Source: a virus
Lineage: Duplodnaviria; Heunggongvirae; Uroviricota; Caudoviricetes
DNA: 60,485 bases
IMG/VR virus record: IMGVR_UViG_2671181056_000013
Coordinates: 1-60,485 of that record
Reading direction: 5' to 3' (one strand)
Shown here: positions 22,572 to 57,874 of the stretch, piece by piece
Position numbering within the stretch: the first letter of the stretch is position 1
Layout: each line of letters begins with the position of its first letter
Notes under the pieces: model-generated
The model's database searches: none
What the model saw: only the letters and a program-made list of their open reading frames with translations
What the model was told of the DNA's origin: nothing
Program-made: the position numbers and the translations under genes

Positions 22572-22635
22572 AAACCTCTTTCCTTAGTGCCTTTTGTATG
22601 TTATTTGGCTATTATAATAAGTAAGTGATTACTTA

Positions 22636-23334
22636 GTGGATTGTAGCAATAAAATGGACGTAAAAATCACGATTTTGCAGGTTGATGTTGCCAACCTTCG
22701 CCCGAATACCTGGAACACCAATTCGGTTGGTGCGCAGAATTTCGAAAAACTGAAAGGTTCTATCGAAAAATTGGGCTTTTTTAAGCCAATTTTGGCTCGT
22801 GAACTTGAAGATGGATTTTTTGAAATCCTCGGCGGCGAACATCGCTGGCGTGCCGCTATTGAGCAAGGAATTTCAACGGTTCCAGTGCTTTCTGTGGGCA
22901 AAATTAGCGATGTCGTAGCTAAACAGATGTCACTGGTGGACAACGAGCGATACGGTGAAGACGACCAAATCGCATTGCAACGCTTCATTGAAGAAATTCA
23001 GTCAGAACTTGACTATCAACTGTCTGAAATCGCCCCGTATGACGACGAAATCTCGATGGTTTTAGCAAAAGAGGCGGCAATCGACCTTGAAGCACTGGAG
23101 GCGTTGTCTCGTGGTAGTGATGAGCCTGTCGATACCGACAAACGAGAGAAAACCGAACGTGTGGGGGCGGAACATCAGACCATGCGCTTCAAAGTAACTT
23201 TCGATGCGTCAGATCGTGTTGCAGAAACCATAAAAAACATCATCAAAGAGCAGGCTATTAACACCGGTAATGAAATGGAGAACGCTGGTGAGGCTCTGGT
23301 GTGGCTGGTCGACTACTACAAGGAGCGTATGTAA
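22636..23334 (+). CDS. ParB/Srx-fold N-terminal-domain protein (ParB-like nuclease domain)
   Basis: GGEHRWRAA motif typical of the ParB N-terminal domain; the true start may be the ATG at 22654. Confidence 0.7.
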   Translation: MDCSNKMDVKITILQVDVANLRPNTWNTNSVGAQNFEKLKGSIEKLGFFKPILARELEDGFFEILGGEHRWRAAIEQGISTVPVLSVGKISDVVAKQMSLVDNERYGEDDQIALQRFIEEIQSELDYQLSEIAPYDDEISMVLAKEAAIDLEALEALSRGSDEPVDTDKREKTERVGAEHQTMRFKVTFDASDRVAETIKNIIKEQAINTGNEMENAGEALVWLVDYYKERM

Positions 23335-24002
23335 TGACCAAAAAGTTTGAAATCGTATATCGCGACCCGGCAGATCTTATTCCCTATGAGATGAATGCCA
23401 AAAAGCATGATGAACAGCAGATCAGAGATCTGGCCGCAGCCATTAAAAAGCGCGGATTTGACCAGCCAATTACGGTCGATAAGAACGACGTAATTATTAC
23501 TGGCCACGGCCGTCGTGAGGCTGCAATTTTTGCTGGACTTGAGCGTGTACCGGTTATTGTTCGCGATGATCTCAGTGATGACGAGGTTCGTGCGAAGCGC
23601 CTTGAAGATAACCGACTTGCCAGCATTGATTACGATGCAATTAAGCTACAGAAAGAGCTTGAGTCGCTTGTTCTGGACGATATCGAGGTTTTCGGCTTCG
23701 AAGAGCGTGAGTTGAATGTTCTCGTTGGCAGTATGACAGAAGAAATGGACACCGACTCGCTAGTTATCGATCTTGGCGAAGAAACTAAACGACAGAAGGA
23801 TGAACACACCGAGATCAGTCGTGAAGTTGCAGCGGAAGAAGTACGTGTTGTCGACGTATTGGGCTTTAAAACGCTTCCTGCTGGCTCTGCCATTGTTGTT
23901 GGTGATTTGCTTGCCCACATGGAAGAAATGACGGGAGAAAGCGGGGTAGACGCATTTGTGGCATATGCGGAGAAAATCTCTTCCGGGGAGATGGCTGCAT
24001 GA
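23334..24002 (+). CDS. second ParB-like N-terminal-domain protein
   Basis: ITGHGRREAA motif; start overlaps the previous stop (TAATG). Confidence 0.7.
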   Translation: MTKKFEIVYRDPADLIPYEMNAKKHDEQQIRDLAAAIKKRGFDQPITVDKNDVIITGHGRREAAIFAGLERVPVIVRDDLSDDEVRAKRLEDNRLASIDYDAIKLQKELESLVLDDIEVFGFEERELNVLVGSMTEEMDTDSLVIDLGEETKRQKDEHTEISREVAAEEVRVVDVLGFKTLPAGSAIVVGDLLAHMEEMTGESGVDAFVAYAEKISSGEMAA

Positions 24003-24637
24003 GCAAATACATCATCAACGTATCGTTTCAGACACGCGTAAATAAAACCACGCGCACGTTGGAAATCGCTGAGTCGTTCGGGCTTGGCCTGGACGAAAAA
24101 GAGTGGACGCTTTACGACAATCTGGAGCTGGAAGTGAAGCAGGGCGATGTGGTGTACATCACCGGCCAATCCGGTTCCGGCAAATCCGTTGTGCTGCGCG
24201 AGTTGCAACGACAGATGAAGGATGAAGGGCTGTCTGTAGCCTCCATCGATGATTTTACCTTCGATAATGAGGTTAACGTCATCGATCAGTTGGGCAAAAC
24301 GACCAGTGATGCGCTTGGGTTGTTATCTATGGCTGGTCTGAACGATGCATATCTGTTTGTTCGCAAGCCTTCTGAAATGTCAGACGGCCAGAAATATCGT
24401 CTCAAGATTGCCAAACTGATTGAGTCAGGCGCTAAAGTATGGGCTGCTGACGAGTTCGGCGCTGTTCTAGACCGTGTAACCGCTCAGGTTGTGGCGTCTA
24501 ACCTCCAGCGTGCCGCTCGAAAGGTTGGTGCGACGGTAATGGTGGCGACGACTCACGAAGACCTGAAGAACGCGCTGCGCCCGGATATGCAGATCACCAA
24601 GCACTACAAAGAACGCGTGAAGGTGGAATATGCCTGA
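23999..24637 (+). CDS. ABC-type ATPase (no transmembrane domain)
   Basis: Walker A GQSGSGKS, signature-like MSDGQKYRL, Walker B AADEFGA and H-loop TTHE. Confidence 0.7.
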   Translation: MSKYIINVSFQTRVNKTTRTLEIAESFGLGLDEKEWTLYDNLELEVKQGDVVYITGQSGSGKSVVLRELQRQMKDEGLSVASIDDFTFDNEVNVIDQLGKTTSDALGLLSMAGLNDAYLFVRKPSEMSDGQKYRLKIAKLIESGAKVWAADEFGAVLDRVTAQVVASNLQRAARKVGATVMVATTHEDLKNALRPDMQITKHYKERVKVEYA

Positions 24638-24884
24638 TTTGAAGATCGTAGAGCTGAAGCCATCGAAAGAGACTGATAACAACAACGTGGAAGTCATCCG
24701 CCTGCTGGAAGAAGCACTTCAGCACGCCAGAGAAGGAAAAAGCCAGAGCCTGGCGCTGTTGATGATCAACAACGACGGCAGTGTTCTTGATTGCTGGCAT
24801 AACGGCGGGCGCCCGTATGTCATGGTAGGGGCGATGGAGTCTCTTCGCCTGGATTTCATCAATGCCAATATCGAGCGCAGGTGA
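24630..24884 (+). CDS. hypothetical protein (84 aa)
   Basis: ORF overlapping its neighbours by 8 and 4 nt, suggesting operon membership. Confidence 0.5.
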   Translation: MPDLKIVELKPSKETDNNNVEVIRLLEEALQHAREGKSQSLALLMINNDGSVLDCWHNGGRPYVMVGAMESLRLDFINANIERR

Positions 24885-25780
24885 TCGACATGGCAGATAT
24901 CATCATCAAACGCTACCGCCCTGAAGAGTTTCCGCGTCATCTGGACTTTCTGGAGCGAATGACTGTCACAAAGGGAACTGTAGAGGACTGGCACGCTCTT
25001 AAGTCGCTTCACTACAAAACAGACGGCAAACCTTTCGCGCCAACTTACTATCGCTGCGAACTTGATGACCGTCTGGTGGGCGTCGTGGTTATGGCTTACC
25101 CGAAACTACTGTTGGCACCTCGCCACCGCATGTTTCCTAAGTTGAAACCAACCACTAATACCACCGTAGCTAACCAGTACTGGGGTCGGTACGTGAATAA
25201 CAACTTTGCGGTGATCAGTCGCTCAGTTGTGGATACTCAGTATCGTGGCGTAGGCGTCTCTTATCGAATGATTAACCTGGTTAGCAGGATGCATGACCGG
25301 CCAATCATTGAGATCCAGTCCTCGATGAGCAAATACAATCCCTTCGCCATGAAAGCAGGGTTTAAGTTCATCCGCCCTGAGCGACCGAAGAGCTATGAAA
25401 GTGCACTGCGTGTATTCCAGCGCCATTTCCGTTCCGACCCTGGTGATAACGAGGCGATCGTCAAAGAGTTGTTCGCAATGAGCGAGTCTCGTCGTCGCCG
25501 TGCACTGCGTGATCTGGTGGCGGACTACCACAAGAACAGTTCCCTGGCAAAAGCTGGGCGGAATCGTGGCACGACGATTCAGGACATTGCCGACAGTCTG
25601 GTGGACGAGGCCAGCATTGTGAAGCTGCTCAAGGACATTCACAACCTGAGCTTTACGTCTCCGTTGTATGGTGTGTACCGAAACCCTGACTTTGGTCGTC
25701 GACTGCCTGACACGCTGCCACTGCTGGCATTCGACAAACAACCTTTGGATAAACCGTTAGAAATTGCTTTACCGGCATAA
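24881..25780 (+). CDS. hypothetical protein (299 aa) with a possible GNAT-like acyltransferase core
   Basis: Q-Y-R-G-V-G-V resembles the GNAT motif A (Q/RxxGxG/A); assignment is tentative. Confidence 0.4.
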   Translation: MIDMADIIIKRYRPEEFPRHLDFLERMTVTKGTVEDWHALKSLHYKTDGKPFAPTYYRCELDDRLVGVVVMAYPKLLLAPRHRMFPKLKPTTNTTVANQYWGRYVNNNFAVISRSVVDTQYRGVGVSYRMINLVSRMHDRPIIEIQSSMSKYNPFAMKAGFKFIRPERPKSYESALRVFQRHFRSDPGDNEAIVKELFAMSESRRRRALRDLVADYHKNSSLAKAGRNRGTTIQDIADSLVDEASIVKLLKDIHNLSFTSPLYGVYRNPDFGRRLPDTLPLLAFDKQPLDKPLEIALPA

Positions 25781-25789
25781 GGATTTGCC

Positions 25790-26056
25790 ATGACGTTAAC
25801 CGACAAACAAAAGGACATCATCAAAACGCTCAATCTCGGTTATGAGCGAGGTCATCTACTTGATCTGGACGAATTGCTTGAAGTTTTGCCGTACAAGACA
25901 ACCAAGCAAAGCATCCAGTTCTCAATTCGCGCTCTGATAAAAAAGGGGCTGGTGGAGAAAGGACATACGCGCCAACGCAGTGACAATCGCTATCACCGCC
26001 GGACTCTTGGGTTAACCACTTTAGGTCGAGCCAAAGCGAAGTTACTGGTGATGTAA
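25790..26056 (+). CDS. small basic protein (88 aa), possible DNA-binding regulator
   Basis: Basic C-terminus; followed by the long palindrome at 26081. Confidence 0.4.
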   Translation: MTLTDKQKDIIKTLNLGYERGHLLDLDELLEVLPYKTTKQSIQFSIRALIKKGLVEKGHTRQRSDNRYHRRTLGLTTLGRAKAKLLVM

Positions 26057-26080
26057 TCGGTCTGGGAGCTTATTTAAAGA

Positions 26081-26135
26081 CCTGCTTCTGTATATATAAA
26101 TAATAAGTAACTTATTAAATATATACAGAAGCAGG
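26081..26135. repeat. 55-bp imperfect palindrome with 17-bp perfect arms (CCTGCTTCTGTATATAT ... ATATATACAGAAGCAGG), copy 1
   Basis: Read directly; outer arms GGTCTGGG / CCCAGACC extend the symmetry to about 100 bp. A second copy lies at 56965-57017. Confidence 0.7.
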
Positions 26136-26252
26136 CTTAGTAAGACATGCCCAGACCTAATTAAACACCCCAGAAAACAAGTTGGTTAGCATATGCAGTA
26201 AACAAGTTGTTTTAGAGCGCATGGACGCGCTCTGTGTGTTTTAGAGGGATCT

Positions 26253-26885
26253 ATGACGGTCGAAAAAGACGAGGTAAAAACTCGCCTGACACCAGCGGAG
26301 TGGGCCGAAGCTGAAGCCAAATGGACGTCAGGCGAATATACACTCTCAAAGCTGGAGGAAGAGTACGGCATTCGTCGTGAAACACTCTCCAGACATTTCA
26401 AAAAGCGAGGATTAGAGAAAGGCGCGGACTCTGTTGGGAAGATGGTTCGTGAGTCTCTTAAATCTGACGCAGAGCTTCGCGCTAAAGCCCGTGCGGAAAA
26501 GATAGAAGAACGTCGTACACGTTATGACGGCTGGGCGTATGCGTTGGGGCAGATGGTGATGGTCGAAGTCACTACGGCCAAACGTGAGGGTAAGCCTTTA
26601 GGGGCGATTGAGGATTCTCTCAAGAGCTTACAGAGAGCCAGTAATACTCTTGCAAAATGCTTTGAAGTTTCGTCCAAAGCATTGGGCATGGATCATGCGG
26701 AAAATGACGAGGAAGAAATTCCGAACCTGGTATTTGGTGAGCTTACGCCTTCCCAGGTGGCGAAATTACGTCAGGAAGACGACGAGCCTGAAATCATCGA
26801 TGACGAATTGCTTGAGACGTTGGAAGAAGAAGCTCTAAGCGAATTTGATGCGACAGATGATGGAAGTGAAGGGGAGGACGAATAA
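26253..26885 (+). CDS. putative terminase small subunit
   Basis: Directly upstream of, and abutting, the large terminase; 210 aa with acidic C-terminus. Call rests on position. Confidence 0.55.
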   Translation: MTVEKDEVKTRLTPAEWAEAEAKWTSGEYTLSKLEEEYGIRRETLSRHFKKRGLEKGADSVGKMVRESLKSDAELRAKARAEKIEERRTRYDGWAYALGQMVMVEVTTAKREGKPLGAIEDSLKSLQRASNTLAKCFEVSSKALGMDHAENDEEEIPNLVFGELTPSQVAKLRQEDDEPEIIDDELLETLEEEALSEFDATDDGSEGEDE

Positions 26886-28141
26886 TGGCAATCCCGTCCT
26901 CGCTCAGTCTTGTGCAACTGCATTCTGGACAGATGAAAGTCTTCCAGTCTCCGCATCGATTTAAAGTTGTTTGTGCTGGTCGACGCTGGGGAAAATCCCG
27001 GTTGTCGATCTCCACTATTATTCGTGCGGCGGCAAAGGAAAAAAAGCAAAGAGTCTGGTATGTCGCTCCTACTTACCAGATGGCTCGCCAGATTTTGTGG
27101 GACGATCTACAGGAAGTTCTGCCTCGTAAGTGGGTTAGGAAAAAGAACGACACCACGATGACAATCGTGTTGAAGAACGGTTCGGAGATCGCCCTCAAAG
27201 GTGCTGATAAGCCTGACACTCTGCGCGGCGTAGCGTTGCATTTTGTAGTGCTTGATGAATTTCAGGATATGAAGGCTGACACCTGGTACAAGGTGTTACG
27301 ACCTACTCTTTCATCGACACGCGGCGGTGCACTGATCATTGGTACGCCAAAAGGCTTCTCGGAATTTCACAAACTGTGGACTATAGGCCAGAACGTAGAG
27401 CTGCAAAGAAAGGGACAGTGGAAGAGCTGGCAGTTTGTAACTGCCGATTCTCCGTTTGTACCTACGGCGGAAATTGAAGCTGCTAAGAACGATATGGACC
27501 CGAAATCGTTCGCTCAGGAGTACCTGGCGAGCTTTGAGAACATGTCCGGGCGCGTTTACTACCCGTTCGATCGTAACGTGCATGTAAAACCGCTTCAGTT
27601 CAACCCTCGGTTGCCTATATGGGTAGGGCAGGACTTCAACATTGACCCGATGTCTTCAGTAATTTTGCAACCTCAGCCAAATGGTGAGCTATGGGCAATT
27701 GATGAATTGGTGCTCTTTTCCTCTAACACGGCAGAAGTTTGTGATGAGCTTGAGAGACGCTTCTGGCGCTGGAAATCACAGGTAACGGTATTTCCAGATC
27801 CGGCAGGTGCTTATCGCCAACATGCTCGTGGGGAGTCTGACGTAGACATATTCAAAGAGAAGGGATTCTTACGTGTCGATTATTCGAAAAAGCACCCGCC
27901 AATTGCGGATCGTGTTAATGCTGTTAACCGAATGCTGATGTCCGCATCTGGAGATATCCGGCTGTATATCGATCCGAAGTGCAAGCATTTGATTGATTCA
28001 CTGGAAAAAGTCATCTACAAGCCTGGAACACGAGATATGGATAAGACAGGTGGCATTGAGCATAGTGCAGACGCATTGGGCTATCCAGTACATCGTAGGT
28101 ATCCAGTAAAAAATCGTGTTATTCTTGGTGGTTCTCGATAG
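26885..28141 (+). CDS. terminase large subunit
   Basis: Walker A AGRRWGKS and Walker B VVLDEF in the N-terminal ATPase; nuclease-like C-terminal half. Confidence 0.85.
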   Translation: MAIPSSLSLVQLHSGQMKVFQSPHRFKVVCAGRRWGKSRLSISTIIRAAAKEKKQRVWYVAPTYQMARQILWDDLQEVLPRKWVRKKNDTTMTIVLKNGSEIALKGADKPDTLRGVALHFVVLDEFQDMKADTWYKVLRPTLSSTRGGALIIGTPKGFSEFHKLWTIGQNVELQRKGQWKSWQFVTADSPFVPTAEIEAAKNDMDPKSFAQEYLASFENMSGRVYYPFDRNVHVKPLQFNPRLPIWVGQDFNIDPMSSVILQPQPNGELWAIDELVLFSSNTAEVCDELERRFWRWKSQVTVFPDPAGAYRQHARGESDVDIFKEKGFLRVDYSKKHPPIADRVNAVNRMLMSASGDIRLYIDPKCKHLIDSLEKVIYKPGTRDMDKTGGIEHSADALGYPVHRRYPVKNRVILGGSR

Positions 28142-28167
28142 GTAAGTAATTATCTAAGGTTATTCAA

Positions 28168-29742
28168 ATGGAATTGAACGACAAACAAATTAAGGATCTG
28201 GTGGCGCGACGCCACCCGGAATACGAAAAGAAAAAAGAACATTGGGACTTCCTCGCCAGCACTTACGCTGGCGGGCGTGGTTGGTTTACAGACAATATCT
28301 TTCGTTACTTTAAAGAGGGAGATCAGGAGTTTAAGGAGCGAGTTGAACGTGCTTATCGCTTCAACCACACTCGTGAGGTGGTAAACCTCATCAACAAATA
28401 TCTCTTTAAAGAAGACATTCATAGAAATATCGAAGAGGCACCAGAGCAGATCCGCAATTTCTGGAAACGTGCGACTCGCCAGAATGCCTCTATTGACTCA
28501 TTTATGGCCGCTATTGATTTGCAGTCGTCTATTTACGGTCGCATATGGGTTGTTGTCGATAGCACGATGAGTGGTGATGTTGAGTCAGTAGCTGACGAGA
28601 AAAAGAAAGATGCTCGCGCCTACGCCTACTGGATTTCACCTCAGCAAATGCTGGATGTGGCATGGGACGACGACGGGAATATGTTGTGGGCGTTAATTGT
28701 GGAAGTCGCTCGTGATGACGCAGATCCTTTTACTTCTACAGGTCAGGAATACCAACGTTATCGTCTGTGGACACAAAACGAGTGGTATCTGTTCCGTGAG
28801 GAAGTGAAGAAGGGCGCTGGTGGAGCAGGTCGCCGTCAGGCAAAAGTTATTTTAGAGGATAGCGGTGAGCATAATCTCGGCGTAGTTCCTGTGTTTCCTG
28901 TTGATTGTATTGGAGAAAGTGAATCACCGTATTTCAGCCCATCGTTGATCGATGATATCGCTTATCTTGATCGTGCGGTTGCAAACTATCTGTCAAACCT
29001 TGATGCCATTATTCAGGATCAGACATTTAGCCAGTTGGCTATACCGGTACAGTCGCTTTTACCTGGTGATGAAAACCACACTAAAGTGCTTGAAATGGGC
29101 ACAAAGCGAGTCTTCACCTACGATTCTGAAGGTGGAAACCAGCCGTTTTATCTGTCACCAGACCCGAAACAAGCTCAGATGATCATCACTACGATTAAGA
29201 CGGTGATTAACGAAATCTACCATTCAGTTGGTGTAGCTGGTGAGCGAACGAAGCAGGACAACGCACAGGGAATCGATAATTCATCTGGTGCCGCAAAAAT
29301 GTATGACTTCCAGCGTGTAAATAGCTTGCTTGTCACAAAAGCAGAGCGTCTGGAAAGGGCTGAACGCCAAATCATGCTACTGGTTGCGAAATGGATGGGG
29401 GTAGATCTGGACGAAGACCACTCTTTAATTGCGTATCCAGAAAGTTTCGATATTCGTGGCCTTACTGATGAATTTTCTGTTGCCGAGAAACTGTCATTAC
29501 TTCAGGCACCGGACTCTGTACGTCGTCACCAGATGGAAATGCTTATTGAGAAGATTTTCCCGAACATTACTGAGGCGATGAAAAAGGAATTTGATAAAGA
29601 TCTCTTGAATTTTCCTCCAAAAAATGATCTAAATACCCTTGAAAATAAGTCAGTACTTACTTATGATCGTGGTGCAGCCCAAGAAAGCGGGCAAGATCAA
29701 CCCCGAGGGAATGGGGACTCATCTACTCAAGAGAACGAGTGA
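28168..29742 (+). CDS. portal protein
   Basis: 524 aa ORF immediately after the terminase; call rests on position and size. Confidence 0.7.
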   Translation: MELNDKQIKDLVARRHPEYEKKKEHWDFLASTYAGGRGWFTDNIFRYFKEGDQEFKERVERAYRFNHTREVVNLINKYLFKEDIHRNIEEAPEQIRNFWKRATRQNASIDSFMAAIDLQSSIYGRIWVVVDSTMSGDVESVADEKKKDARAYAYWISPQQMLDVAWDDDGNMLWALIVEVARDDADPFTSTGQEYQRYRLWTQNEWYLFREEVKKGAGGAGRRQAKVILEDSGEHNLGVVPVFPVDCIGESESPYFSPSLIDDIAYLDRAVANYLSNLDAIIQDQTFSQLAIPVQSLLPGDENHTKVLEMGTKRVFTYDSEGGNQPFYLSPDPKQAQMIITTIKTVINEIYHSVGVAGERTKQDNAQGIDNSSGAAKMYDFQRVNSLLVTKAERLERAERQIMLLVAKWMGVDLDEDHSLIAYPESFDIRGLTDEFSVAEKLSLLQAPDSVRRHQMEMLIEKIFPNITEAMKKEFDKDLLNFPPKNDLNTLENKSVLTYDRGAAQESGQDQPRGNGDSSTQENE

Positions 29743-29763
29743 TAAGTAACAAAAGGAATTTTT

Positions 29764-30676: not shown

Positions 30677-31597
30677 ATGCCATTACTGCGTGAAGAAGCT
30701 GAAAAGCTATCCAATAATGAACTTGAACAGGGTGTGATCGAAACTATCATCGATCGCGATGACCTGTTTGCGATTCTGCCTTTTATGAAGATTAACTCGA
30801 AGGCATATCTTTATAATCGCGAAGCAACGCTTAGTGAAGCGACCTTTATTGATGTAAACGATACTATTGCGGAAGGCGCAGCAACATTCAGCGAACATGT
30901 TGCAAAACTGCGTATTCTGGCTGGTGACGTTGACGTTGATAAATTCTTAGCAACAACTATGTCCGATACTAACAATCAGTTGGCTGTTCAGGTTCGCCAG
31001 AAAGTTAAAGGTCTGGCTCGTGCATTCCGTCGAAATCTGATCTTGGGTAATTCTGAAACTAATACCAAAGCGTTTGATGGTATTCCGCGTCTGATGCACA
31101 AAGATCAGAAGATCGACATTGCTGGTGCATCTATGACTTTCTCTATGTTCGACGAGCTGGTCGATGCGGTGAAAGATTTGGGCGCTGACTGCATCATGAT
31201 GCGTTCAGAGCACCTGCGTGCTTACCGTGCGCTGCTGCGTACAGTAAACGTAGGCCCGTCTGAAATCATGATGGAGAACTTCGGTCGTCCTATGCTGTGC
31301 CATAATGGTATTCCATTTATTGTTAACGACTTCATTCCTAAAAATGGGGTTAAAGTTACTGAAGATTCAGAGCAGAAAACGGAAGGCCAGGAAGGCACTG
31401 CTAACATTTATTGTCTGCATTTGTCAGAAGAAAATGGTCTTACCGGTCTGTATGGCGGTGACAATGCTGGTATCGTTGTGGAGAACATTGGCACGGTACA
31501 GAATAAAGATGCAGTACGTACTCGTGTGAAATGGTACTGCTCTCTGGCGAATAAGCACGATAAGGCTATCGCTGCACTGAACAATGTAAAAATTTAA
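30677..31597 (+). CDS. putative major capsid protein
   Basis: 306 aa ORF after the scaffold gene, followed by a strong terminator as is usual for capsid genes. Confidence 0.65.
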   Translation: MPLLREEAEKLSNNELEQGVIETIIDRDDLFAILPFMKINSKAYLYNREATLSEATFIDVNDTIAEGAATFSEHVAKLRILAGDVDVDKFLATTMSDTNNQLAVQVRQKVKGLARAFRRNLILGNSETNTKAFDGIPRLMHKDQKIDIAGASMTFSMFDELVDAVKDLGADCIMMRSEHLRAYRALLRTVNVGPSEIMMENFGRPMLCHNGIPFIVNDFIPKNGVKVTEDSEQKTEGQEGTANIYCLHLSEENGLTGLYGGDNAGIVVENIGTVQNKDAVRTRVKWYCSLANKHDKAIAALNNVKI

Positions 31598-31630
31598 CTA
31601 AAATAATAGGTGTGTAATTACCTATGCTTA

Positions 31631-31658
31631 AGGGTGGGCTATACGCCCACCCTTTTTG
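31631..31658 (+). terminator. strong intrinsic terminator (AGGGTGGGC-TATAC-GCCCACCCT plus T5)
   Basis: Perfect 9-bp stem followed by TTTTT. Confidence 0.75.
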
Positions 31659-33843: not shown

Positions 33844-34227
33844 GTGTTTATTGAAGCATTTGCAAATTTGATGCAGAAGGCAAAGATTGGCACGGTAGGG
33901 ACAGACATTTTCTGTCATTACTTACCTGCCTATGTCAAATCCGGTGTCCTGCTTATTAACCCAAATACCGGTATCAGTATCGATCATGAGTTACAGGGCT
34001 TTTATCATGAGTCGTTCACAATCATTGTGCGTGGCTCGTCAATTACAACGACTATTGAGAAAGCGCGTAAGATCATTGATATGTTTCCCGTAGAGGAAAC
34101 GGAATCTGGAGAGGTCTATTTTCGACTTGTACGGCCTATGGCTATGCCTGTCGTTTATCCGAAAAATGATGGATCGTTAATAGAAGCCGGTATTCCAGTT
34201 GAATTTGCTGGCTATTTATTGAATTAA
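33844..34227 (+). CDS. hypothetical tail-completion-region protein (about 127 aa, GTG start)
   Basis: GTG at 33844 with a GAGAGG RBS right after the upstream stop; the ORF-track start at 33739 would overlap the previous gene by about 100 nt. Confidence 0.45.
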   Translation: MFIEAFANLMQKAKIGTVGTDIFCHYLPAYVKSGVLLINPNTGISIDHELQGFYHESFTIIVRGSSITTTIEKARKIIDMFPVEETESGEVYFRLVRPMAMPVVYPKNDGSLIEAGIPVEFAGYLLN

Positions 34228-34300
34228 ATAAATAGGTAAGTATATACTTAAATATAGCGCAATGAATGCGTGAAATTAACGGAAAAAGGAGTTTCCATCA

Positions 34301-40715: not shown

Positions 40716-40764
40716 GTATCTGGATAAGTAAGTACTAATTTACTATCATTGTGGCGCTGACAGG

Positions 40765-41496
40765 ATGTCAGCGCCTACTTATTTCAAGGATGAAACAATG
40801 GGAATTAAAGCTGATATTCAGAGCTTATCTCCCTCTGCACTCATTGAGTTGTTCGTACTGGATATGTCGAACACAACTTCAGGGGGGAAGCTATTCTTCC
40901 ACGCCGGAACAAACGAACTGATGCAACCGGTCGTCTGGCAAGGAGTGACATACGAGCCGTGGCCAATCAAAGCATCAGGCTTTGACAAAACTGGCCAGGG
41001 AACGTTGCCACGTCCAAAAATTCAGGTATCGAACTTTGCCGGAACCGTCTCTGCGGAAGTTCAGGCGAACGACGATCTTGTTGGCTGCCGCATTATTCGC
41101 AAGATGACGCTGGCTCGCTTCCTCGATGCCGTTAATTTTAAAGACGGCAACCCAACAGCAGATCCAAACCAACATTTCCCGGATGAAATGTGGTTTATCG
41201 AACAGAAAACTCTCGAAACTCATCAGGTTGTCGAGTTTGAATTGTCCAGTGTGTTCGATTTGATGGGGGTACAACTGCCGTATCGTCAGATCATTAAAAA
41301 CACCTGCCCGTGGAAATACCGAGGGCCAGAATGCGGCTATACCGGTCCATATTTCGACAAAAATAACCAGCAGACGTCTATGTCTGGTGCGGATTACTGC
41401 ACAAAACGTTATGACGCCTGTAATGCGCGTCGGAATTATTTTGCCGACGGTGTGATCCATTTTGGTGGATTTATTGGAGCTACGCGGTATGGGTAA
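40765..41496 (+). CDS. minor tail protein (lambda L-like)
   Basis: 243 aa with a Cys-rich C-terminus (CPWKY...CGY...YCTKRYDAC), as in L-type proteins. Confidence 0.7.
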   Translation: MSAPTYFKDETMGIKADIQSLSPSALIELFVLDMSNTTSGGKLFFHAGTNELMQPVVWQGVTYEPWPIKASGFDKTGQGTLPRPKIQVSNFAGTVSAEVQANDDLVGCRIIRKMTLARFLDAVNFKDGNPTADPNQHFPDEMWFIEQKTLETHQVVEFELSSVFDLMGVQLPYRQIIKNTCPWKYRGPECGYTGPYFDKNNQQTSMSGADYCTKRYDACNARRNYFADGVIHFGGFIGATRYG

Positions 41497-47590: not shown

Positions 47591-47684
47591 TTATGGAAAA
47601 AAATATTTTTATCGATAATAATAGGTAGTTACATACTTAATGGTGGGCAAGGATAGCCCACCTGATTAAAGGAGCAGATTCAAC

Positions 47685-51654: not shown

Positions 51655-51751
51655 AATATAAAAGGTTATATATTATTTAAATTTCAGTTGATATTTAAAT
51701 TACATAAAATTATGTAAGGGGATATTAAAATAGATTGCTCATGGAGGAAGC

Positions 51752-52075: not shown

Positions 52076-52088
52076 CAGGAGAACAAGG

Positions 52089-52781: not shown

Positions 52782-52782
52782 T

Positions 52783-53034
52783 ATGCTAGGTAGCCTGATG
52801 ATAAAGCTAAAAGTTGCTTTGATTACTCTGGCTGCCGTTCTTTTCGTTCTGGTCGGCGCTTACACGATGGGCGGAAATGCGGCGCGACGAGCAATGGAAG
52901 AGAAGGCAAAACAGGAAGACAGGAAACGACTTCAAAGCACAGTGGATGTCAAAAATGAAACACTTGATGAGTTACGGCGCAAAGATGCTTCTACTGTTCA
53001 TCATGAGTTGCACAATAAGTGGTTGCGTGATTAA
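52783..53034 (+). CDS. i-spanin (Rz-like)
   Basis: N-terminal transmembrane helix followed by a charged coiled-coil-like region. Confidence 0.6.
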   Translation: MLGSLMIKLKVALITLAAVLFVLVGAYTMGGNAARRAMEEKAKQEDRKRLQSTVDVKNETLDELRRKDASTVHHELHNKWLRD

Positions 53035-53185
53035 GCCTCAATCCTCTGGTGTGCTTTTCTGCGATGCGGCTACACCGCTATACATCAGCCGTGATGATCT
53101 CATGACCGAAGAGACTGAAAGGGAAGTACTTTTTCACAATATGATAGGGGAGCGATTGTGTGGATGGGGCAGAAAAGTGCCATAA
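52955..53185 (+). CDS. o-spanin (Rz1-like lipoprotein), overlapping Rz in another frame
   Basis: Signal peptide with lipobox TISGC inside the +1 frame of the i-spanin gene; extends past the i-spanin stop. Confidence 0.6.
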   Translation: MKHLMSYGAKMLLLFIMSCTISGCVIKPQSSGVLFCDAATPLYISRDDLMTEETEREVLFHNMIGERLCGWGRKVP

Positions 53186-53359
53186 TAAAAGCGGAATTTT
53201 CTAACATAAAATTTGCATATTATTAGAGCACAAGGTAGATTTGAAGCATGGATGTCAAGTAAATCATACCTTGTTTTAATAAATCGACGCATACTCGTAG
53301 CCTCTAAACCGACAAGGTCGCCGCTATGACATAAAGTTATTACCGGCTAAGGTGGAAAC

Positions 53360-53758
53360 ATGCATACTGCGCTTAACGCATCTCGTTCTATTCAGACGAT
53401 AAGAGACTGTACCAAGATGATCGCATCGGTTCCGTTGCGGCATTGGAATGACTCGCTCCAAATTCGTGAAATGAACAAACCGGGTATGCTTAAGGATCAG
53501 CGTTTCATCGTTAACCTTAAAAGTGACGTTGAAGAAGGCAAGTTTACCATCAAATTGTTTGCAGAAATGATGGTGCTCAACAATCGGTTACGTTTTCTTG
53601 TTAAGCCAGAAAAACAGTTTCCCGATGTTGTGCGTTGTGAACAGGATGCTTTCTATGAGATTGAAAGCAAAATAGCTAAATTTATCAAAGATAAATACCG
53701 CGTAGATGTTAAAATAGCGAAACTGGATTCATCTACGGATATGCGGCTTGCTAACTAA
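53360..53758 (+). CDS. hypothetical protein (132 aa), first gene of a two-gene cassette
   Basis: AT-rich promoter-like region upstream; GGTGGAAA RBS; stop abuts the next start. Confidence 0.55.
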   Translation: MHTALNASRSIQTIRDCTKMIASVPLRHWNDSLQIREMNKPGMLKDQRFIVNLKSDVEEGKFTIKLFAEMMVLNNRLRFLVKPEKQFPDVVRCEQDAFYEIESKIAKFIKDKYRVDVKIAKLDSSTDMRLAN

Positions 53759-54535
53759 ATGTCACCATCATTCATAGCAGAGTATTCAAAAGTACTGTCT
53801 GATTTCCCTGAATGTGAAGCAAGAGAGAAAATCAGAGTTGGCTACATGGTTAACTCTGATTTTTCTGTTTTACGGCTCACAGAGTGGTCCTTGATCGGGT
53901 CTAATTATGATTACTGTTTGACAGTGTCATTTGTAGGCGACCCTGATGCAGATTGGCTTCAAGAACATGCAATGGATCTTGACGAGCAGGGGCATTCAGA
54001 AGAAGAGATAGTTCATAGTGTTCGTGAATTAGTTGGTGATGAGCAAGAAGATGATGACGGCATTCAGATCGCCAGGTTCGTCTACAAACGATTCCAGTTT
54101 CGCTCACAAAAAGGCTCTCACCTTGGGGTCCAGATTAAAGGGGCATTTGTAACCCCTTCAAAGGAACAAAAGGGACTTGCTAGAAGAGTTTACAATTTTC
54201 TTCTCAATTGGCATGACCATGTAGTATGTGATGACCATCAGACGGTTTACGGTGCCAGAATTTGGGCTGTAGGTATGCTTTTGGTCGGTCGTGTCCAAAT
54301 CTATGACAATTTAAATAAAGAATTTATAGATGTCCTTGTTGAAGGTGGTATTGGGCAGAATGGCGTCAAACCGTGGGATGCGCTGCTATTGAACAGCGAG
54401 GCTCAGTTACGTCACTGGAACCCTATGGCTGTCAGCATAGACCCATCTAGTCAGATTCTCACCATCATCTCCAAAGAAGACCGCCACATTGAAGTGGGCG
54501 TTACAACATTTGATGCCAGGTCTACCAACCACTAA
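53759..54535 (+). CDS. hypothetical protein (258 aa), second gene of the cassette
   Basis: Start immediately follows the upstream stop; terminator 9 nt after its own stop. Confidence 0.6.
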   Translation: MSPSFIAEYSKVLSDFPECEAREKIRVGYMVNSDFSVLRLTEWSLIGSNYDYCLTVSFVGDPDADWLQEHAMDLDEQGHSEEEIVHSVRELVGDEQEDDDGIQIARFVYKRFQFRSQKGSHLGVQIKGAFVTPSKEQKGLARRVYNFLLNWHDHVVCDDHQTVYGARIWAVGMLLVGRVQIYDNLNKEFIDVLVEGGIGQNGVKPWDALLLNSEAQLRHWNPMAVSIDPSSQILTIISKEDRHIEVGVTTFDARSTNH

Positions 54536-54543
54536 TTCCTAAA

Positions 54544-54565
54544 CCCGCTACGGCGGGTTTTTTGT
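54544..54565 (+). terminator. intrinsic terminator (CCCGC-TACG-GCGGG plus T6)
   Basis: Hairpin plus TTTTTT. Confidence 0.7.
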
Positions 54566-54697
54566 TATTAAGTCCTTACCAAATCTATGTACCTATCATT
54601 AAACCTTTACACAGCAGCCGTAGGCATTTAGGCTATATCACATATAAGAAAACAAGTTGTTTCAGACAATAATAATAGACGCAAAGGAAACTCTCCA

Positions 54698-55366
54698 ATG
54701 ACCAAGATCTTTGTGGTTGGCGGCACAAAGGGCGGGCCTGGCAAATCCACCGTTGCCCAGCAAATTGCCGTTTGCCTGAAAGTCAAAAAGAAGAAGAAGG
54801 TTTATATTACCGATATAGATATTCAGCGCACGACAACGAGCTGGTGTGAAGACCGTCGACAGAACGAAGACCTTGAGCTGATTCCTTTTGCATACGTTCA
54901 GGATGACATCATTAAGCACCTAAAATCGCTTCAGGGTAGAGCTGAGTTTGTAGTGGTAGATGCTGGTGGCTTCGACTCCGAAATTCAGCGACAAGCGATG
55001 CTGATGGCTGACGTTATCATTATCCCGCTGCGTCCTAAGCGTCGTGATTTGAAATCTTTACGTGACATCGATCCTATTATCGACAATGTTCGCAATGTAA
55101 ACGATAAAGTGAAGGTCCGCGCGGTCATGAACCAGTGCCCGGCTTTGCCATCACAAGTGTCTCGCATTCTGGCGGCTAAAGAGATTGTTGAGACGTTTGG
55201 CATCGAGTCTGCGCCAGTCAATCTATATAACCGCAACGTCTATGATGATGCGGAAGAGTCTGGTCGTTCTATCTTTGAAATGACCGGTAGCGAGCGCGAC
55301 AAAAAGGCGGAAGCCGAGTTTGAAGAATTTGTAGATTATCTGTTGAGTCTGGAGGAAGAAGAATAA
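54698..55366 (+). CDS. ParA/MinD-family partition ATPase
   Basis: Deviant Walker A GGTKGGPGKST; 222 aa, typical small ParA size. Confidence 0.8.
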   Translation: MTKIFVVGGTKGGPGKSTVAQQIAVCLKVKKKKKVYITDIDIQRTTTSWCEDRRQNEDLELIPFAYVQDDIIKHLKSLQGRAEFVVVDAGGFDSEIQRQAMLMADVIIIPLRPKRRDLKSLRDIDPIIDNVRNVNDKVKVRAVMNQCPALPSQVSRILAAKEIVETFGIESAPVNLYNRNVYDDAEESGRSIFEMTGSERDKKAEAEFEEFVDYLLSLEEEE

Positions 55367-55725
55367 TGTCCATGAAAATGGGTGACCTAGCAAAGCGCAA
55401 AGAGTCTGATGCACCGGCTAAGAACACAACTCCTTTGCGCCAACCAGTCAGACCACAGGGACGCCCGACTCGTGGCAAAGAGAAAATTAAAAGCCGCACA
55501 ATGTCACTGGAGGACGAATACTTCGAACTGCTGGAGATGATGAAGTTCATCCCTCGCTTCGAGAAATTCACCCGCTCTGATGTGATTCGTGCTGCTATTT
55601 TCCATCTGGCAGAGAAGTCACCGCAGGAAATCGAGGACATCGTGAAGCTTAACGAGGCGATCACTGCTGCCGATGTCACGATGCGTACCGATGAAATTAA
55701 ACGCGAGTTAATGAAGAAAGGTTGA
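55366..55725 (+). CDS. putative partition partner protein (ParG/ParB-like adaptor)
   Basis: Overlapping start with parA-like (ATAATG); basic N-terminus. Call rests on position. Confidence 0.5.
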   Translation: MSMKMGDLAKRKESDAPAKNTTPLRQPVRPQGRPTRGKEKIKSRTMSLEDEYFELLEMMKFIPRFEKFTRSDVIRAAIFHLAEKSPQEIEDIVKLNEAITAADVTMRTDEIKRELMKKG

Positions 55726-55734
55726 TATAAATCT

Positions 55735-55764
55735 CTAAGGCTGGTCTGCATTGGACAGCCTTAG
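55735..55764. terminator. hairpin between convergent genes (CTAAGGCTG...CAGCCTTAG)
   Basis: 9-bp stem with 12-nt loop; the flanking A/T runs are weak. Confidence 0.45.
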
Positions 55765-55785
55765 AAATATTTCGTTCTATGAAAG

Positions 55786-56859
55786 CTATTCGTAGTTAAG
55801 CTCACCGAACAGACTGAACATCAAGTCACCATCCAAAATTTCAAAGGGCAACTCAACATACTCATCCTTATGTCTCGGAATTGCATTGCCGTCGTTAGGG
55901 GCATTCTTGGTATAACCTTTTACATGTTTACCGTTTTCTTTTGTATACGGCAGCACGACAATTCGACCGTGATTTTTTGAAATGATAGTTCCTTCTTTCC
56001 AGAGCGTATTGCCTCTTGAGGTGGTTTCGCTTTCGCTAGCAACTTTAACACTCCAACCTACCTGATTTTTGTCCTCAAACCAGAAAACAAAGTTGCCAAC
56101 AACCAGTACCTTTTGCCCATTCCTGAGAGCTTCATCCAGCATTCTTTTTACGCTGGCGAGTTGCAGTAACCGGTTAGCACGCGGCAGAAGCATTGAGCGA
56201 ATAGTCGCTTTTGTTTTTCCCCAATGTGCAGCACCTGATAAACCAAAACCTCTGGCTATGCGTTCTTGGTAGCAGATCTTCGCTGTCTTAGCTTTGTTGT
56301 TATATGAACATTCCCAAGTGTTAGGAGCAACGAGTTGAAGTGAAACTTGGAATTTGGGAAGAAAAACAAAATGTAAGTAAGGCATCTCGCTTAGCACGTC
56401 AAAAAGGGGTTGACGCAAAGTTTCGTAATCTGGGTTAATTATTAACTCATTTAATGTCACTCGCGGATCGTTGGCGTGTGCCTTAATTGCTTCGTTGAGC
56501 ATTATATACTCTTCATCCATGAGACGTGATTTGGCTTTGAGTGCTTTGTCAACTTTCAAACGCAATGACTTCTTTTGAAACATAGATAGAGGAAGTTTTT
56601 CAATGTCAAAGCTCACGTTTTTATTCAGCTCTAATGCCGCTTTTCTTGCTTCAGGATAGTTATCGTAGTCGTCATCAACAGCGTGGTTTGGCATACCACG
56701 ATCAACATATCGCCGATACCAAGCAAGGGTTCCATCATTACGGAGTTTCAGACAGAACATCGACCATTTATTCCGTTCATATTTAGGCTGAGGCCAAAAA
56801 GCCAGTTCGGGAAGGCCATATCCTGGAAGTCTATTCATGCGCATGGTGACAATATCCAC
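55786..56859 (-). CDS. hypothetical protein (357 aa), lone minus-strand gene in a plus-strand region
   Basis: Long ORF with its own upstream region containing palindrome copy 2. Confidence 0.65.
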   Translation of the reverse strand: MDIVTMRMNRLPGYGLPELAFWPQPKYERNKWSMFCLKLRNDGTLAWYRRYVDRGMPNHAVDDDYDNYPEARKAALELNKNVSFDIEKLPLSMFQKKSLRLKVDKALKAKSRLMDEEYIMLNEAIKAHANDPRVTLNELIINPDYETLRQPLFDVLSEMPYLHFVFLPKFQVSLQLVAPNTWECSYNNKAKTAKICYQERIARGFGLSGAAHWGKTKATIRSMLLPRANRLLQLASVKRMLDEALRNGQKVLVVGNFVFWFEDKNQVGWSVKVASESETTSRGNTLWKEGTIISKNHGRIVVLPYTKENGKHVKGYTKNAPNDGNAIPRHKDEYVELPFEILDGDLMFSLFGELNYE

Positions 56860-56964
56860 GAGGCTAAAACACTAATTCTAACATGATCTCCCTTGATAAA
56901 TCTGTCAATGACATAGCATCTGGAGTTGGAGTCAAATTATGTTGTTCTTGGTATCCATTAGGAG

Positions 56965-57017
56965 CCTGTTTCTGTATATAAATAATAAGTAACTTATTAA
57001 ATATATACGGAAGCAGG
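56965..57017. repeat. 55-bp imperfect palindrome, copy 2 (two substitutions relative to copy 1)
   Basis: CCTGTTTCTGTATATAT...ATATATACGGAAGCAGG; both substitutions keep pairing as G-U in plus-strand RNA. Confidence 0.7.
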
Positions 57018-57124
57018 TCTTTTAAAAGACACCACCAGAACAACTCCCTTCCGTTTTCACTTCCAAAAACTGACACCAGTCGCTATCATCCGTCCATTGT
57101 GATAAGTAAGTAACTACCTACCAG

Positions 57125-57874
57125 GTGAGCCACATGAGCCAAATCTTTTTCGATACCATCGACAACGACCAGTACGACTTCATGACAGAGTGGAATACCG
57201 CTGTTATGGACAAGTGGGTCGCTGAAAACATTGGTTTGTCGCGCTGTAAAGACGAGGCTGAACTCTTCGAGACGAAGTGGTTTGATTACCGAGACATGCA
57301 TCCTCTTATGGCCACCTGTCTGTTTACGGAGGCATACAAACGTCAGTACTCAAATATCATGCTGACGCACGGTCGCGAACACTTTGAAACAGCTCCGTTC
57401 ACCACCGGGTTAAAACGCCTGCCTTATCAGGAGTTGTCGACTGCCAATAAAACGTCTCTATGGAAAGCACGCCAGTTTGCTGACCGCTATTGCTGCTCAT
57501 ACGACTACTTTATCTCCACCGTTCTTTCCGCAGCTGCACGACGGCTGTGGGACAAGCTGCCGCGCCCACAGCATTTGTGGCAGCCAGAGCTGGTTGAGAT
57601 ATTCGAAGAGAAATTAGCCAGACGCGCAACAACCCGTCTGGATGACTCTCTTGTTAGCTTTAAGCATATGGGAGACATGCAGTTCAACCCGATTCAGGAA
57701 AGCTATTTTGAGTGGATTCTGGAGTGTTTGCGCACCATCCCTCGCAGCAAGCGCATACGCGCAATTTTCTCCGCTATCTGGCTAATGGAAATCGTTCCAG
57801 AGCGCCTTATTTCCGCCCACTTTCCAGAAGAACTGGAAGAAGCACGGCGGTTTATTGATCCCCTATCTAATTAA
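57125..57874 (+). CDS. hypothetical protein (249 aa), possibly replication-associated
   Basis: Lies immediately upstream of the DnaB-like helicase. Confidence 0.55.
   Translation: MSHMSQIFFDTIDNDQYDFMTEWNTAVMDKWVAENIGLSRCKDEAELFETKWFDYRDMHPLMATCLFTEAYKRQYSNIMLTHGREHFETAPFTTGLKRLPYQELSTANKTSLWKARQFADRYCCSYDYFISTVLSAAARRLWDKLPRPQHLWQPELVEIFEEKLARRATTRLDDSLVSFKHMGDMQFNPIQESYFEWILECLRTIPRSKRIRAIFSAIWLMEIVPERLISAHFPEELEEARRFIDPLSN

Follow-up and report, generated by a model that had tools for sequence, protein, structure and literature searches.

On the IncP plasmid RK2, a short palindrome called OB lies at many plasmid promoters and is bound by KorB, a ParB-family global repressor that regulates its own gene; the OB operator is a 13-bp sequence, TTTAGCSGCTAAA. 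In the plasmid prophage P1, lytic functions are restrained via many scattered C1 operators (P1 annotation), which are asymmetric 17-mers, and the late genes have their own regulator, Lpa, whose boxes upstream of the morphogenesis genes place an AAGT..ACTT inverted repeat by a TAnnnT hexamer. The P1 boxes that we extracted have a 9-bp inverted repeat (AAGTNACTT) and then, after 4 bp, an oriented TAnnnT. In the phage-plasmid N15, four sites are bound by classical SopB, and Ravin and colleagues are said to have described these ParB-type palindromic sites among phage genes as influencing late gene expression.

Here we analyse a window of 60,485 nucleotides (the whole stretch of DNA that was studied), which is an SSU5/pHCM2/pMT1-type phage-plasmid. 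A sequence-only reading of the window had drawn attention to a recurrent motif, ATAAGTAAGTA, described as partly palindromic in several copies. The symmetry is present but was understated, since the repeated motif is one arm of a palindrome that extends throughout 20 bp, with the half-sites ATARGTAAGT and ACTTACYTAT (site logo; the palindrome sequence as placed in a 30-bp probe duplex is ATAGGTAAGTACTTACCTAT). Conservation is strongest at T2 and A3, and position 7 is A in 0.9 and G in 0.01 of sites. The recurrence itself is real: ATARGTAAGTA has 5 exact matches in the window against 0.03 expected, a count reached in none of 100 shuffles, and allowing up to one mismatch raises the total to 12 against 1.08 expected. 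A background-corrected scan with a weight matrix for the 20-bp palindrome, built on seed sites from SSU5, PhiR41_1 and pJN2-26, whose own site counts given below also use this matrix, found 12 window positions of at least 14 bits against 0.03 in dinucleotide shuffles. These correspond to 11 distinct sites:

3726-3745, no strand: palindrome ATAGAGAAGTACTTACTTAA, 18.5 bits, between divergent Mrp-like (-) and MetRS (+) genes
10008-10027, no strand: duplicate of the 3726 site with the same sequence, in unit three of the tandem repeat
15586-15605, no strand: palindrome TATTGTAAGTACATACCTAT, 14.7 bits, 31 nt upstream of orf135 (15637)
22617-22636, no strand: palindrome ATAAGTAAGTGATTACTTAG, 21.1 bits, between the divergent DEAD-box helicase (-) and ParB-like (+) operons
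28138-28157, no strand: palindrome ATAGGTAAGTAATTATCTAA, 23.6 bits, spanning the large-terminase stop codon, with the portal ATG 10 nt downstream
29645-29664, no strand: palindrome ATAAGTCAGTACTTACTTAT, 28.7 bits, within the 3' end of the portal gene
31606-31625, no strand: palindrome ATAGGTGTGTAATTACCTAT, 21.5 bits, with the major capsid stop 9 nt upstream
34232-34251, no strand: palindrome ATAGGTAAGTATATACTTAA, 24.3 bits, with the major tail gene 49 nt downstream
40724-40743, no strand: palindrome ATAAGTAAGTACTAATTTAC, 23.1 bits, right arm imperfect, between the M-like and L-like tail genes
47621-47640, no strand: palindrome ATAGGTAGTTACATACTTAA, 20.8 bits, between the J-like and tail-fibre genes
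57102-57121, no strand: palindrome ATAAGTAAGTAACTACCTAC, 24.3 bits, 12 nt upstream of orf246, the gene preceding the DnaB-like helicase

Six of the eight copies listed previously correspond to true sites, although their coordinates were off by a few bases. The other two are not: that at 26098 is the centre of a different hairpin of about 55 bp (26081-26135), and that at 29739 is a half-site-like sequence, ATAAGTAAC, at the portal stop codon. Five sites had been missed (3726-3745, 10008-10027, 15586-15605, 29645-29664 and 31606-31625), the first two of which belong to a tandem duplication: the 3726 site is in its copy 1, and the repeat unit around it is identical to that around the 10008 site. 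Placement was thought to be always intergenic, and this is so for 10 of the 11 sites, in a window that is 89% coding by a crude ORF-based gene call; the exception, 29645-29664, lies inside the portal gene. The proposed distance of 20-40 nt before start codons proved too narrow, as the gap from palindrome end to start codon is about 10-69 nt in the window (ORF coordinates) and from 2 to more than 130 nt in relatives. Stop codons in several frames occur inside the motif and could alone drive it out of coding sequence (read from sequence).

The motif was also supposed to be specific to this phage, but it is common to the whole SSU5/pHCM2/pMT1 family and to more distant relatives. With a threshold of at least 12 bits we found 35 sites in SSU5, 22 in PhiR41_1 and 37 in the Klebsiella plasmid pJN2-26, where about 0.2 are expected. 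Whole genomes of relatives hold about 20-37 palindromes, spaced about every 3-5 kb between genes, as in the window element, and located at orthologous junctions before replication and structural genes alike, although the flanking sequences differ between relatives. Orthologues were identified for the sites at 15586 (SSU5 93165, PhiR41_1 33340, pJN2-26 28031), 28138 (SSU5 2031, pJN2-26 40580, pAYP-A2 7518, L093 13774, L100 12191), 29645 (SSU5 3544, PhiR41_1 49146, pJN2-26 42093, L093 15273), 31606 (SSU5 5471, PhiR41_1 51107, pJN2-26 44026) and 57102 (SSU5 33600, PhiR41_1 75254, pJN2-26 74983), and the 34232 site likewise has orthologues in relatives. The position of the 22617 site is occupied in PhiR41_1 (42346), in the Acinetobacter element pAYP-A2 (14850), more weakly in pJN2-26 (34775, 15.9 bits), and in the distant relatives L093 (7935), L095 (386) and L100 (6972). 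One intergenic region of the window is matched by 777 PLSDB records.

In the more distant relatives, some of them marine, the palindrome itself varies, and symmetric variants particular to each lineage occupy the same junctions. Acinetobacter pAYP-A2 carries 37 sites of a symmetric variant with the half-sites WWWAGTAAGC and GCTTACTWWW, and a further lineage (L039) has the symmetric variant TTAAGTAAGTACTTACTTAA. Matches to AGT[AC]A-N4-T[GT]ACT number 5 in L093, 4 in L099 and 2 in L100 (0.07, 0.02 and 0.11 expected, respectively); the palindrome centre differs in L093 (GTCACC), and L097 has similar half-sites at another spacing. The variant-bearing relatives have the helicase, ParB-like, terminase and portal genes in a common order, and the arrangement of helicase, then ParB1-ParB2, then terminase is kept in pAYP-A2, L093, L097, L099 and L100. 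Perfect GTAAGTAAGTACTTACTTAC palindromes occur in unrelated viral contigs as well, in a number that we estimate to be near the expectation from chance plus redundancy.

The motif had been interpreted as a late or middle promoter or activator site. The sequence supports this in its broader sense, that of a protein-binding site with a regulatory role associated with gene starts, and 6 of the 11 window sites are overlapped by sigma-70-like promoter matches, seven in all, where we estimate about 0.5 by chance. Such matches arise in part from the palindrome itself, which is AT-rich with TAT...T at its ends, and no promoter was predicted at the remaining 5 of 11 sites. One of the overlapped sites is that inside the portal gene, which occupies the spacer of TTGAAA-17-TATGAT (29639-29667), the best promoter-like match in the 22-42 kb region (10/12). 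Here A is replaced by C at position 7, which abolishes an in-frame TAA (read from sequence); with this one substitution, the only one required to avoid a stop codon, the site has been kept within a gene. Elsewhere, TTGAAT-18-TATACT overlaps the 34232 site, a match at 15588-15616 overlaps the 15586 site, which lies directly 3' of a terminator-like hairpin, and TGGAAA-17-AATAAT ends at position 2 of the 47621 palindrome, which is followed by the inverted repeat GGTGGGC...GCCCACC. An intrinsic-terminator-like hairpin with a T-run (31632-31648) begins 6 nt past the 31606 site, and a GC hairpin (40753-40775) follows the 40724 site.

The idea of an oriented promoter did not survive the comparison of strands. 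Among 45 gene-oriented sites, a TATYAT hexamer is present at palindrome positions 18-23 in 28, with a mostly poor -35 position, and the mirrored position on the other strand has a -10-like hexamer in 29; because such hexamers are equally frequent on both strands, the palindrome has no intrinsic direction, and we rejected the oriented promoter motif on this symmetry. Nor is the layout fixed, since the palindrome may lie in the promoter spacer, just downstream of the -10 or over the -35. Such varying registers relative to sigma-70-like promoters suit a repressor operator and not an activator-dependent late promoter. At the terminase/portal junction, in the window and in relatives, only 10-17 nt separate the end of the site from the ATG; the site also overlaps the ribosome-binding site, and too little space remains for a portal transcript to start. 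Restriction to late or middle genes can also be set aside: the genes downstream include portal, tail and fibre genes, and also those for helicase, SSB, ribonucleotide reductase, thymidylate synthase and methylase.

These data bear on the possibility that the sites are activator-dependent promoters of the P1 late type, in which a -10 and an inverted repeat recruit an Lpa-like activator instead of a -35. The palindrome does contain AAGT..ACTT, as do the P1 late promoters (AAGTKACTT-N4-TAnnnT), and the 28 TATYAT hexamers combined with poor -35 positions would fit such an arrangement. However, the P1 boxes have a fixed 4-bp distance, are oriented and serve late genes only, whereas here a 20-bp symmetric site precedes early-type and late-type genes, some sites are only 2-17 nt from a start codon, the hexamer is no rarer on the opposite strand, and the promoter register varies, as described above. 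Furthermore, no Lpa homologue was found in the window, SSU5, PhiR41_1, pJN2-26 or pAYP-A2 (tblastn, nothing at E<=1; phmmer, nothing significant). We therefore regard activation of this kind as unlikely.

Since the palindrome is often close to ribosome-binding sites, it might instead act as an RNA hairpin in transcripts that governs processing, stability or translation, perhaps bound by an FljA-like protein. FljA proteins act on fliC mRNA (PMC2652032), and the window encodes a member of this family (PF03614, E 1e-68). Against this, the two arms vary independently: at pair 4-17 the counts are GC 16, AT 15, AC 14 and GT 14, so that A-C mismatches are as frequent as chance, and pair counts equal the independence expectation at all 10 arm pairs, with no covariation at any of them. 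Independent arms indicate a protein-bound DNA site and not an RNA hairpin, and on this ground we rejected the hairpin reading, which now appears extremely improbable. The FljA-like protein (19438-19959) was also discarded as a binder, as its gene is absent from the site-keeping Acinetobacter relative and the E. coli fliC leader has no similarity.

A host protein that recognizes a similar sequence is the nucleoid-occlusion factor SlmA, which could repress promoters at the palindromes or couple the plasmid to cell division. The published rule for its sites requires G, T, A and G at positions 1, 2, 4 and 5, a purine at 3 and a pyrimidine at 6, with the A variant bound at about 60 nM (PMC3020112), and the consensus core GTAAGT-ACTTAC fits this 12-bp rule. 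A natural SlmA-binding sequence, SBS17, reads GTAA-GTAAATGGTCAC-TAAC (PMC4117426, Table S7), and a reporter is repressed when a SlmA site is inserted between its -35 and -10 (PMC3573117). However, the 12-bp GTRAGYRCTYAC rule has 0 exact matches in the window (3 of the 11 sites lie within one mismatch), and the conservation profile is different: the most conserved positions, T2 and A3, fall outside the SlmA core, position 7 is nearly always A where SlmA prefers G, and the centre is altered in L093. Chromosomal SlmA sites are mostly within genes, unlike the intergenic palindromes. A. baumannii is without SlmA (PMC7481262, PMC13060281), yet the Acinetobacter relative, an A. baumannii plasmid, has 37 homologous sites. 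With few strict-rule sites in the window and a variable core, we demoted host SlmA as the primary binder, a role that we consider very unlikely. It is perhaps a little less improbable, if still doubtful, that in enteric hosts SlmA might also bind the 20-37 palindromes per genome, an array denser than that of the whole chromosome (E. coli has only 24-52 SlmA sites). If such binding were true, the array could keep the septum off the plasmid, block division in lytic replication or act in co-repression, and would constitute a DNA-encoded hijack of a cell-division checkpoint. Because Acinetobacter lacks SlmA and the palindrome core is not invariant, we favour a binder encoded by the element itself; a search of the element for SlmA or TetR homologues was negative.

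The genes next to the 22617 site encode two such candidates:

22654-23334, + strand: ParB-like protein 1, candidate binder, with a ParB/Srx N-domain and a conserved C-terminal strand-helix-helix module
23301-24002, + strand: ParB-like protein 2, alternative or partner candidate, PF02195, second gene of the conserved operon and conserved in pAYP-A2

Assignment to the ParB family is based on PF02195 and on structural matches that include KorB. The 22617 site lies 17 nt upstream of the ParB-like 1 gene, and a palindrome is found immediately upstream of this gene in five lineages (enteric, Acinetobacter, L093, L095 and L100). The protein is conserved across the palindrome-bearing lineages, with an almost invariant C-terminal strand motif, RFKV. 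It has no recognisable helix-turn-helix motif, a ribbon-helix-helix (Arc/Mnt/CopG type) at its C-terminus was unconfirmed by sequence and fold searches, and the single-sequence AF2 model of the C-terminal domain is of low confidence. ParB-like 1 is nevertheless our best, though unproven, candidate, and would also regulate its own gene. Other conserved proteins, namely ParB-like 2, the small terminase subunit and the orf246 product, could serve as the binder. We rejected orf124 (16163-16537), which has no family annotation and is not conserved in pAYP-A2; the hint had come from one unrelated phage lineage in which a homologue lies about 900 bp from a perfect palindrome, a pairing that is probably coincidental.

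ParB-type proteins may also act mainly as architectural factors, with the palindromes as loading or anchoring sites, comparable to parS or Noc sites, that condense, partition or prepare for packaging a 100-kb genome and with secondary effects on transcription. Consistent with such a role, two proteins of the ParB/Srx fold are encoded in a conserved block adjoining the packaging genes, the sites are spread genome-wide at about one per 3 kb, and the in-motif stops could explain their exclusion from coding sequence. However, positions are conserved at particular gene junctions beyond mere density, the site within the portal gene is preserved precisely where a promoter spacer lies, and there is no strong palindrome in the 48-57 kb stretch of the window, where the lysis, partition and replication-initiator genes are found. 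A primarily architectural function thus seems improbable. The array also differs from the four Sop sites of N15 in that there are dozens of palindromes here and no strong one adjoins the ParA locus (54698-55366).

From these observations we infer that the palindrome controls transcription. Its most likely role is that of a master control site acting on the lytic genes of the virus, as opposed to a one-way promoter, and on balance the sequence evidence makes it probable that it is a dispersed operator for a symmetric, element-encoded binder (candidate ParB-like 1) that exerts coordinate negative control of these genes. In this model, a symmetric dimeric or tetrameric protein of the phage-plasmid would bind the palindromes, which lie before or between nearly all lytic-cycle operons, both those for replication and nucleotide metabolism and those for head, tail and fibre, and which overlap or adjoin sigma-70-like promoter elements. 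The bound protein may occlude promoters or block read-through, and the lytic genes would thereby be silent during plasmid life. The ParB-family protein encoded just past the 22617 site would be the one that binds, regulating its own expression in the process. One point against a repressor is that, if it acted on both early and late genes, it would not account for the temporal programme.

Such control would resemble that by KorB at OB on IncP plasmids or by C1 at its operators on P1. As with KorB, one palindrome is present at many operon starts and a ParB-family gene has a site upstream. The site differs from OB in its 20-bp length, its half-site ATARGTA and its copy number (about 35 versus 12), the candidate ParB-like 1 is without a canonical helix-turn-helix, and the element is a phage-plasmid in which the sites flank lytic genes. 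Unlike the P1 C1 operators, the palindrome is symmetric, and it covers late as well as early genes, whereas P1 leaves its late genes to Lpa; our search for a C1 homologue found none.

Searches of the literature with the motif strings, SSU5 promoters and SlmA with phage-plasmids returned nothing relevant, the motif being undescribed there, and nothing was found in searchable papers on the switch between plasmid life and lytic growth in SSU5-like elements. Among these phage-plasmids are pHCM2 (S. Typhi), pMT1 (Y. pestis) and hundreds of plasmids from Klebsiella, E. coli and Enterobacter, and some of the group carry resistance genes. A single operator that recurs at almost all lytic operons and is retained even in Acinetobacter and marine relatives would provide a handle on that switch: the palindrome defines a regulon, names a candidate regulator and gives a signature for annotating and typing these elements.

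The 11-mer ATARGTAAGTA, described in the sequence-only reading as a recurrent motif in eight copies, occurs in the window well above background, with five exact copies (0.03 expected) and 12 copies at no more than one mismatch (1.08 expected). As seen in SSU5 copies, this 11-mer is the left arm of a full 20-bp palindrome, ATARGTAAGT-ACTTACYTAT. Using a symmetric weight matrix trained on sites of SSU5, PhiR41_1 and Klebsiella pJN2-26, we identified 12 window positions of at least 14 bits, compared with 0.03 in dinucleotide shuffles. The 11 distinct sites, named by left coordinate, are:

3726, 10008, 15586, 22617, 28138, 29645, 31606, 34232, 40724, 47621 and 57102

Ten of these lie between genes, in a window that is 89% coding; the exception to the proposal that copies are always intergenic falls in the 3'-terminal part of the portal gene. 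Six of the eight copies originally listed are among the 11, five of the 11 had been missed, and the copy at 29739 is a stray half-site. The copy at 26098 is instead part of a separate hairpin of ~55 bp. Two such near-perfect palindromes are present (26081-26135 and 56965-57017), with arms CCTGCTTCTGTATATAT... and centre ATAAGTAACTTAT, which corresponds to the outer half-sites of the operator without its 6-bp centre. One precedes the small terminase gene, the second separates the replication-initiator gene from orf246, and copies are found at matching places in SSU5 (33473, 78319), PhiR41_1 (13448, 45595) and pJN2-26 (15285, 74858). Possible roles are an origin, a pac-related site or a bidirectional terminator.

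Over 26-46 kb the window shares 98% identity with Escherichia phage CMS-2020a and PhiR41_1; identity is 94% with Cyrano and about 80% with Salmonella phage SSU5, and on these values we assign it to the SSU5/pHCM2/pMT1-type phage-plasmids. A single 141-bp intergenic piece matched 777 plasmid records, from Klebsiella, Escherichia, Enterobacter, Yersinia pestis, Salmonella, Citrobacter and Cronobacter. Gene order agrees with annotated relatives:

First block: accessory region of three tandem Mrp-like/MetRS units
Leftward operon: DEAD-box helicase to FljA-like protein
Rightward operon: ParB-like 1, ParB-like 2, ABC-type ATPase, small and large terminase subunits, portal, head, tail, fibre
Last block: lysis genes, parA, replication initiator, DnaB-like helicase

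The tandem units (2524-12118; ~3.1-3.2 kb each) pair an Mrp-like gene (-) with a methionyl-tRNA synthetase gene or fragment (+). Units 1 and 3 are identical over the reported repeat segments and unit 2 is 70-94% identical to both; this looks like an amplified accessory region.

Sites of at least 12 bits number 35 in SSU5, 22 in PhiR41_1 and 37 in pJN2-26 (whole genomes; about 0.2 expected), counts that are not independent because the matrix was trained there; the independent test is the ATARGTAAGTA pattern count in the window. Despite diverged flanks, the palindromes recur at orthologous junctions of relatives:

Packaging and head: terminase/portal junction; inside the portal 3' end; after the capsid gene
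Other late genes: before the major tail, L-like, fibre and holin genes
Before the gene preceding the helicase
Replication and metabolism: before the SSB, ribonucleotide reductase, thymidylate synthase, methylase and RNase H genes

Since sites also precede the SSB, ribonucleotide reductase and thymidylate synthase genes, the association with structural and replication genes does not define a late or middle class. The portal-internal site is ATAAGTCAGT... in SSU5, pJN2-26, the window and lineage L093. Its single non-consensus base, A7->C, abolishes an in-frame TAA, so this site is under double constraint. At the terminase/portal junction the site reaches 23.6 bits in the window (28138) but just 11 bits in PhiR41_1 (47639), a 98%-identical relative, so individual sites can decay rapidly between close relatives.

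We rejected an RNA hairpin as the selected form. Among 66 unique enteric sites the arms vary independently at all ten pairs, with no selection for base pairing; at pair 4-17, the informative one, GC was counted 16 times, AT 15, AC 14 and GT 14. Each arm is selected separately towards the same consensus, a pattern characteristic of a symmetric protein bound to double-stranded DNA. Information per arm is high at T2 and A3, low at R4 and high at G5, T6 and A7, a profile that would suit, speculatively, a pair of protein dimers bound with their centres 12 bp apart, one per pseudo-symmetric TARGTA sub-site.

Similar sites are found in deeper relatives. The A. baumannii plasmid pAYP-A2 shares 39 proteins and gene order with the window and carries 37 copies of the variant WWWAGTAAGC-GCTTACTWWW, including one in the helicase/ParB divergent region and one between terminase and portal, 17 nt ahead of the ATG. 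A contig whose proteins are about 50% identical (L039, L056, L065) bears TTAAGTAAGTACTTACTTAA. Relatives found by ParB-like 1 protein search (30-45% identity, GC 0.46-0.60) comprise a single chromosomal prophage plus several contigs from metagenomes, some of them marine. Among those with enough flanking sequence for comparison (L093, L097, L099, L100), the helicase, then ParB1-ParB2-ATPase/GNAT-terminase order is kept, with portal next where identifiable. The palindrome AGT[AC]A-N4-T[GT]ACT occurs five times in L093 (0.07 expected), including the divergent region, terminase/portal junction and portal interior, four times in L099 (0.02 expected), twice in L100 (0.11 expected), upstream of ParB1 and at the junction downstream of the large terminase gene, and once in L095, upstream of ParB1. 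The arms shift jointly between lineages, which points to a binder evolving together with the phage-plasmid; the outer half-site (T)AAGT(A/C)A is constant.

The Acinetobacter relative also encodes a sigma-70-family sigma factor (pAYP-A2 68800-69465, corresponding to L091 18800-19465), flanked by its genes for a MoxR/CobS-like ATPase and DNA polymerase; no gene of similar size occupies this position in the annotated enteric genomes. Viral contigs with no relation to SSU5 also contain perfect GTAAGTAAGTACTTACTTAC palindromes, in some cases more than one in a contig and frequently beside a hairpin (L014, L085, L082, L059, L074; L023 at 11624 and 11679; L021, L064, L067; further L024, L032, L038, L062, L086). 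One group of these has weak nucleotide matches to Pelagibacter phages. By our own estimate, which does not account for the multi-copy contigs, their number is near the chance-plus-redundancy level.

The palindrome has no intrinsic direction. When 45 sites were oriented by the downstream gene, a -10-like hexamer (at least 4 bits) was present at positions 18-23 in 28, and at the mirror position on the opposite strand in 29, which argues against a one-way promoter motif. One flank is A-rich and the opposite one T-rich, and positions 18-23 thus read TATYAT. Of 50 sigma-70-like promoter matches in about 58 kb scanned, seven overlap six of the 11 window sites, which together cover less than 1% of the sequence (estimated chance expectation about 0.5). 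The promoter-like matches include:

29639-29667: palindrome in the spacer, TTGAAA-17-TATGAT; top match of its region
34219-34248 and 40721-40749: palindrome in the spacer
31578-31607 and 47594-47622: -10 ends at palindrome position 2
15588-15616: -35 within the palindrome

Activators require fixed geometry. Of the proposed promoter or activator role, the overlap with promoter-like matches is retained; the registers differ, and such variable geometry suits a repressor or roadblock. In every lineage 10-17 nt separate the end of the terminase/portal palindrome from the ATG, and the palindrome overlaps the ribosome-binding site, so it cannot be a portal promoter. Many late-region palindromes have a GC-rich hairpin 5-10 nt downstream (window 31606, 40724, 47621; SSU5 5471, 15589, 21937, 67775), a pairing conserved across genomes; the hairpin behind the capsid-gene palindrome is terminator-like with a T-run.

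The host protein SlmA was a strong lead as binder; its site represses a reporter when placed between -35 and -10 (PMC3573117). The consensus core GTAAGT-ACTTAC satisfies the published SlmA site rule (PMC3020112), and the natural site SBS17 is similar to the half-site (PMC4117426). However, the window contains no exact match to the rule, conservation is strongest outside the SlmA core, the site centre differs in L093, and SlmA is missing from A. baumannii (PMC7481262, PMC13060281), whose plasmid pAYP-A2 has variant sites. SlmA may bind some of the enteric sites, but as the primary function this is not parsimonious; SlmA capture by the phage-plasmid would be a striking side possibility of low probability.

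We propose instead that an element-encoded symmetric protein would bind about 20-37 operators per genome and silence the lytic operons while the element is a plasmid, occluding promoters at sites that overlap the core promoter and acting as a roadblock at junction sites. The binder would limit its own operon via the site at 22617. ParB-like 1 (22654-23334, +), the putative binder, has a ParB/Srx N-domain and a conserved C-terminal strand-helix-helix module (THQxxRFKV...NAGDALV) rather than a recognisable helix-turn-helix. It matches 6917 cluster representatives at E<=0.001, the module is conserved in 70 aligned full-length relatives, and all five relatives whose loci were read adjoin DEAD-box helicase or phage packaging genes. 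The FljA-like protein (PF03614) is an unlikely binder, as it is not conserved in pAYP-A2, which has the sites. This full-length protein of the leftward operon (19438-19959, -; 'repressor of phase-1 flagellin', E 1e-68) could influence host motility or serve as a regulator of the element.

Dispersed operators of plasmids and plasmid prophages (KorB/OB, P1 C1) are a known kind, to which the palindrome system belongs; homologues of P1 Lpa and C1 were not found in the element. We found no description of the motif, its regulon or its depth of conservation in the searchable literature. The palindrome regulon concerns a clinically widespread plasmid family and is directly testable.
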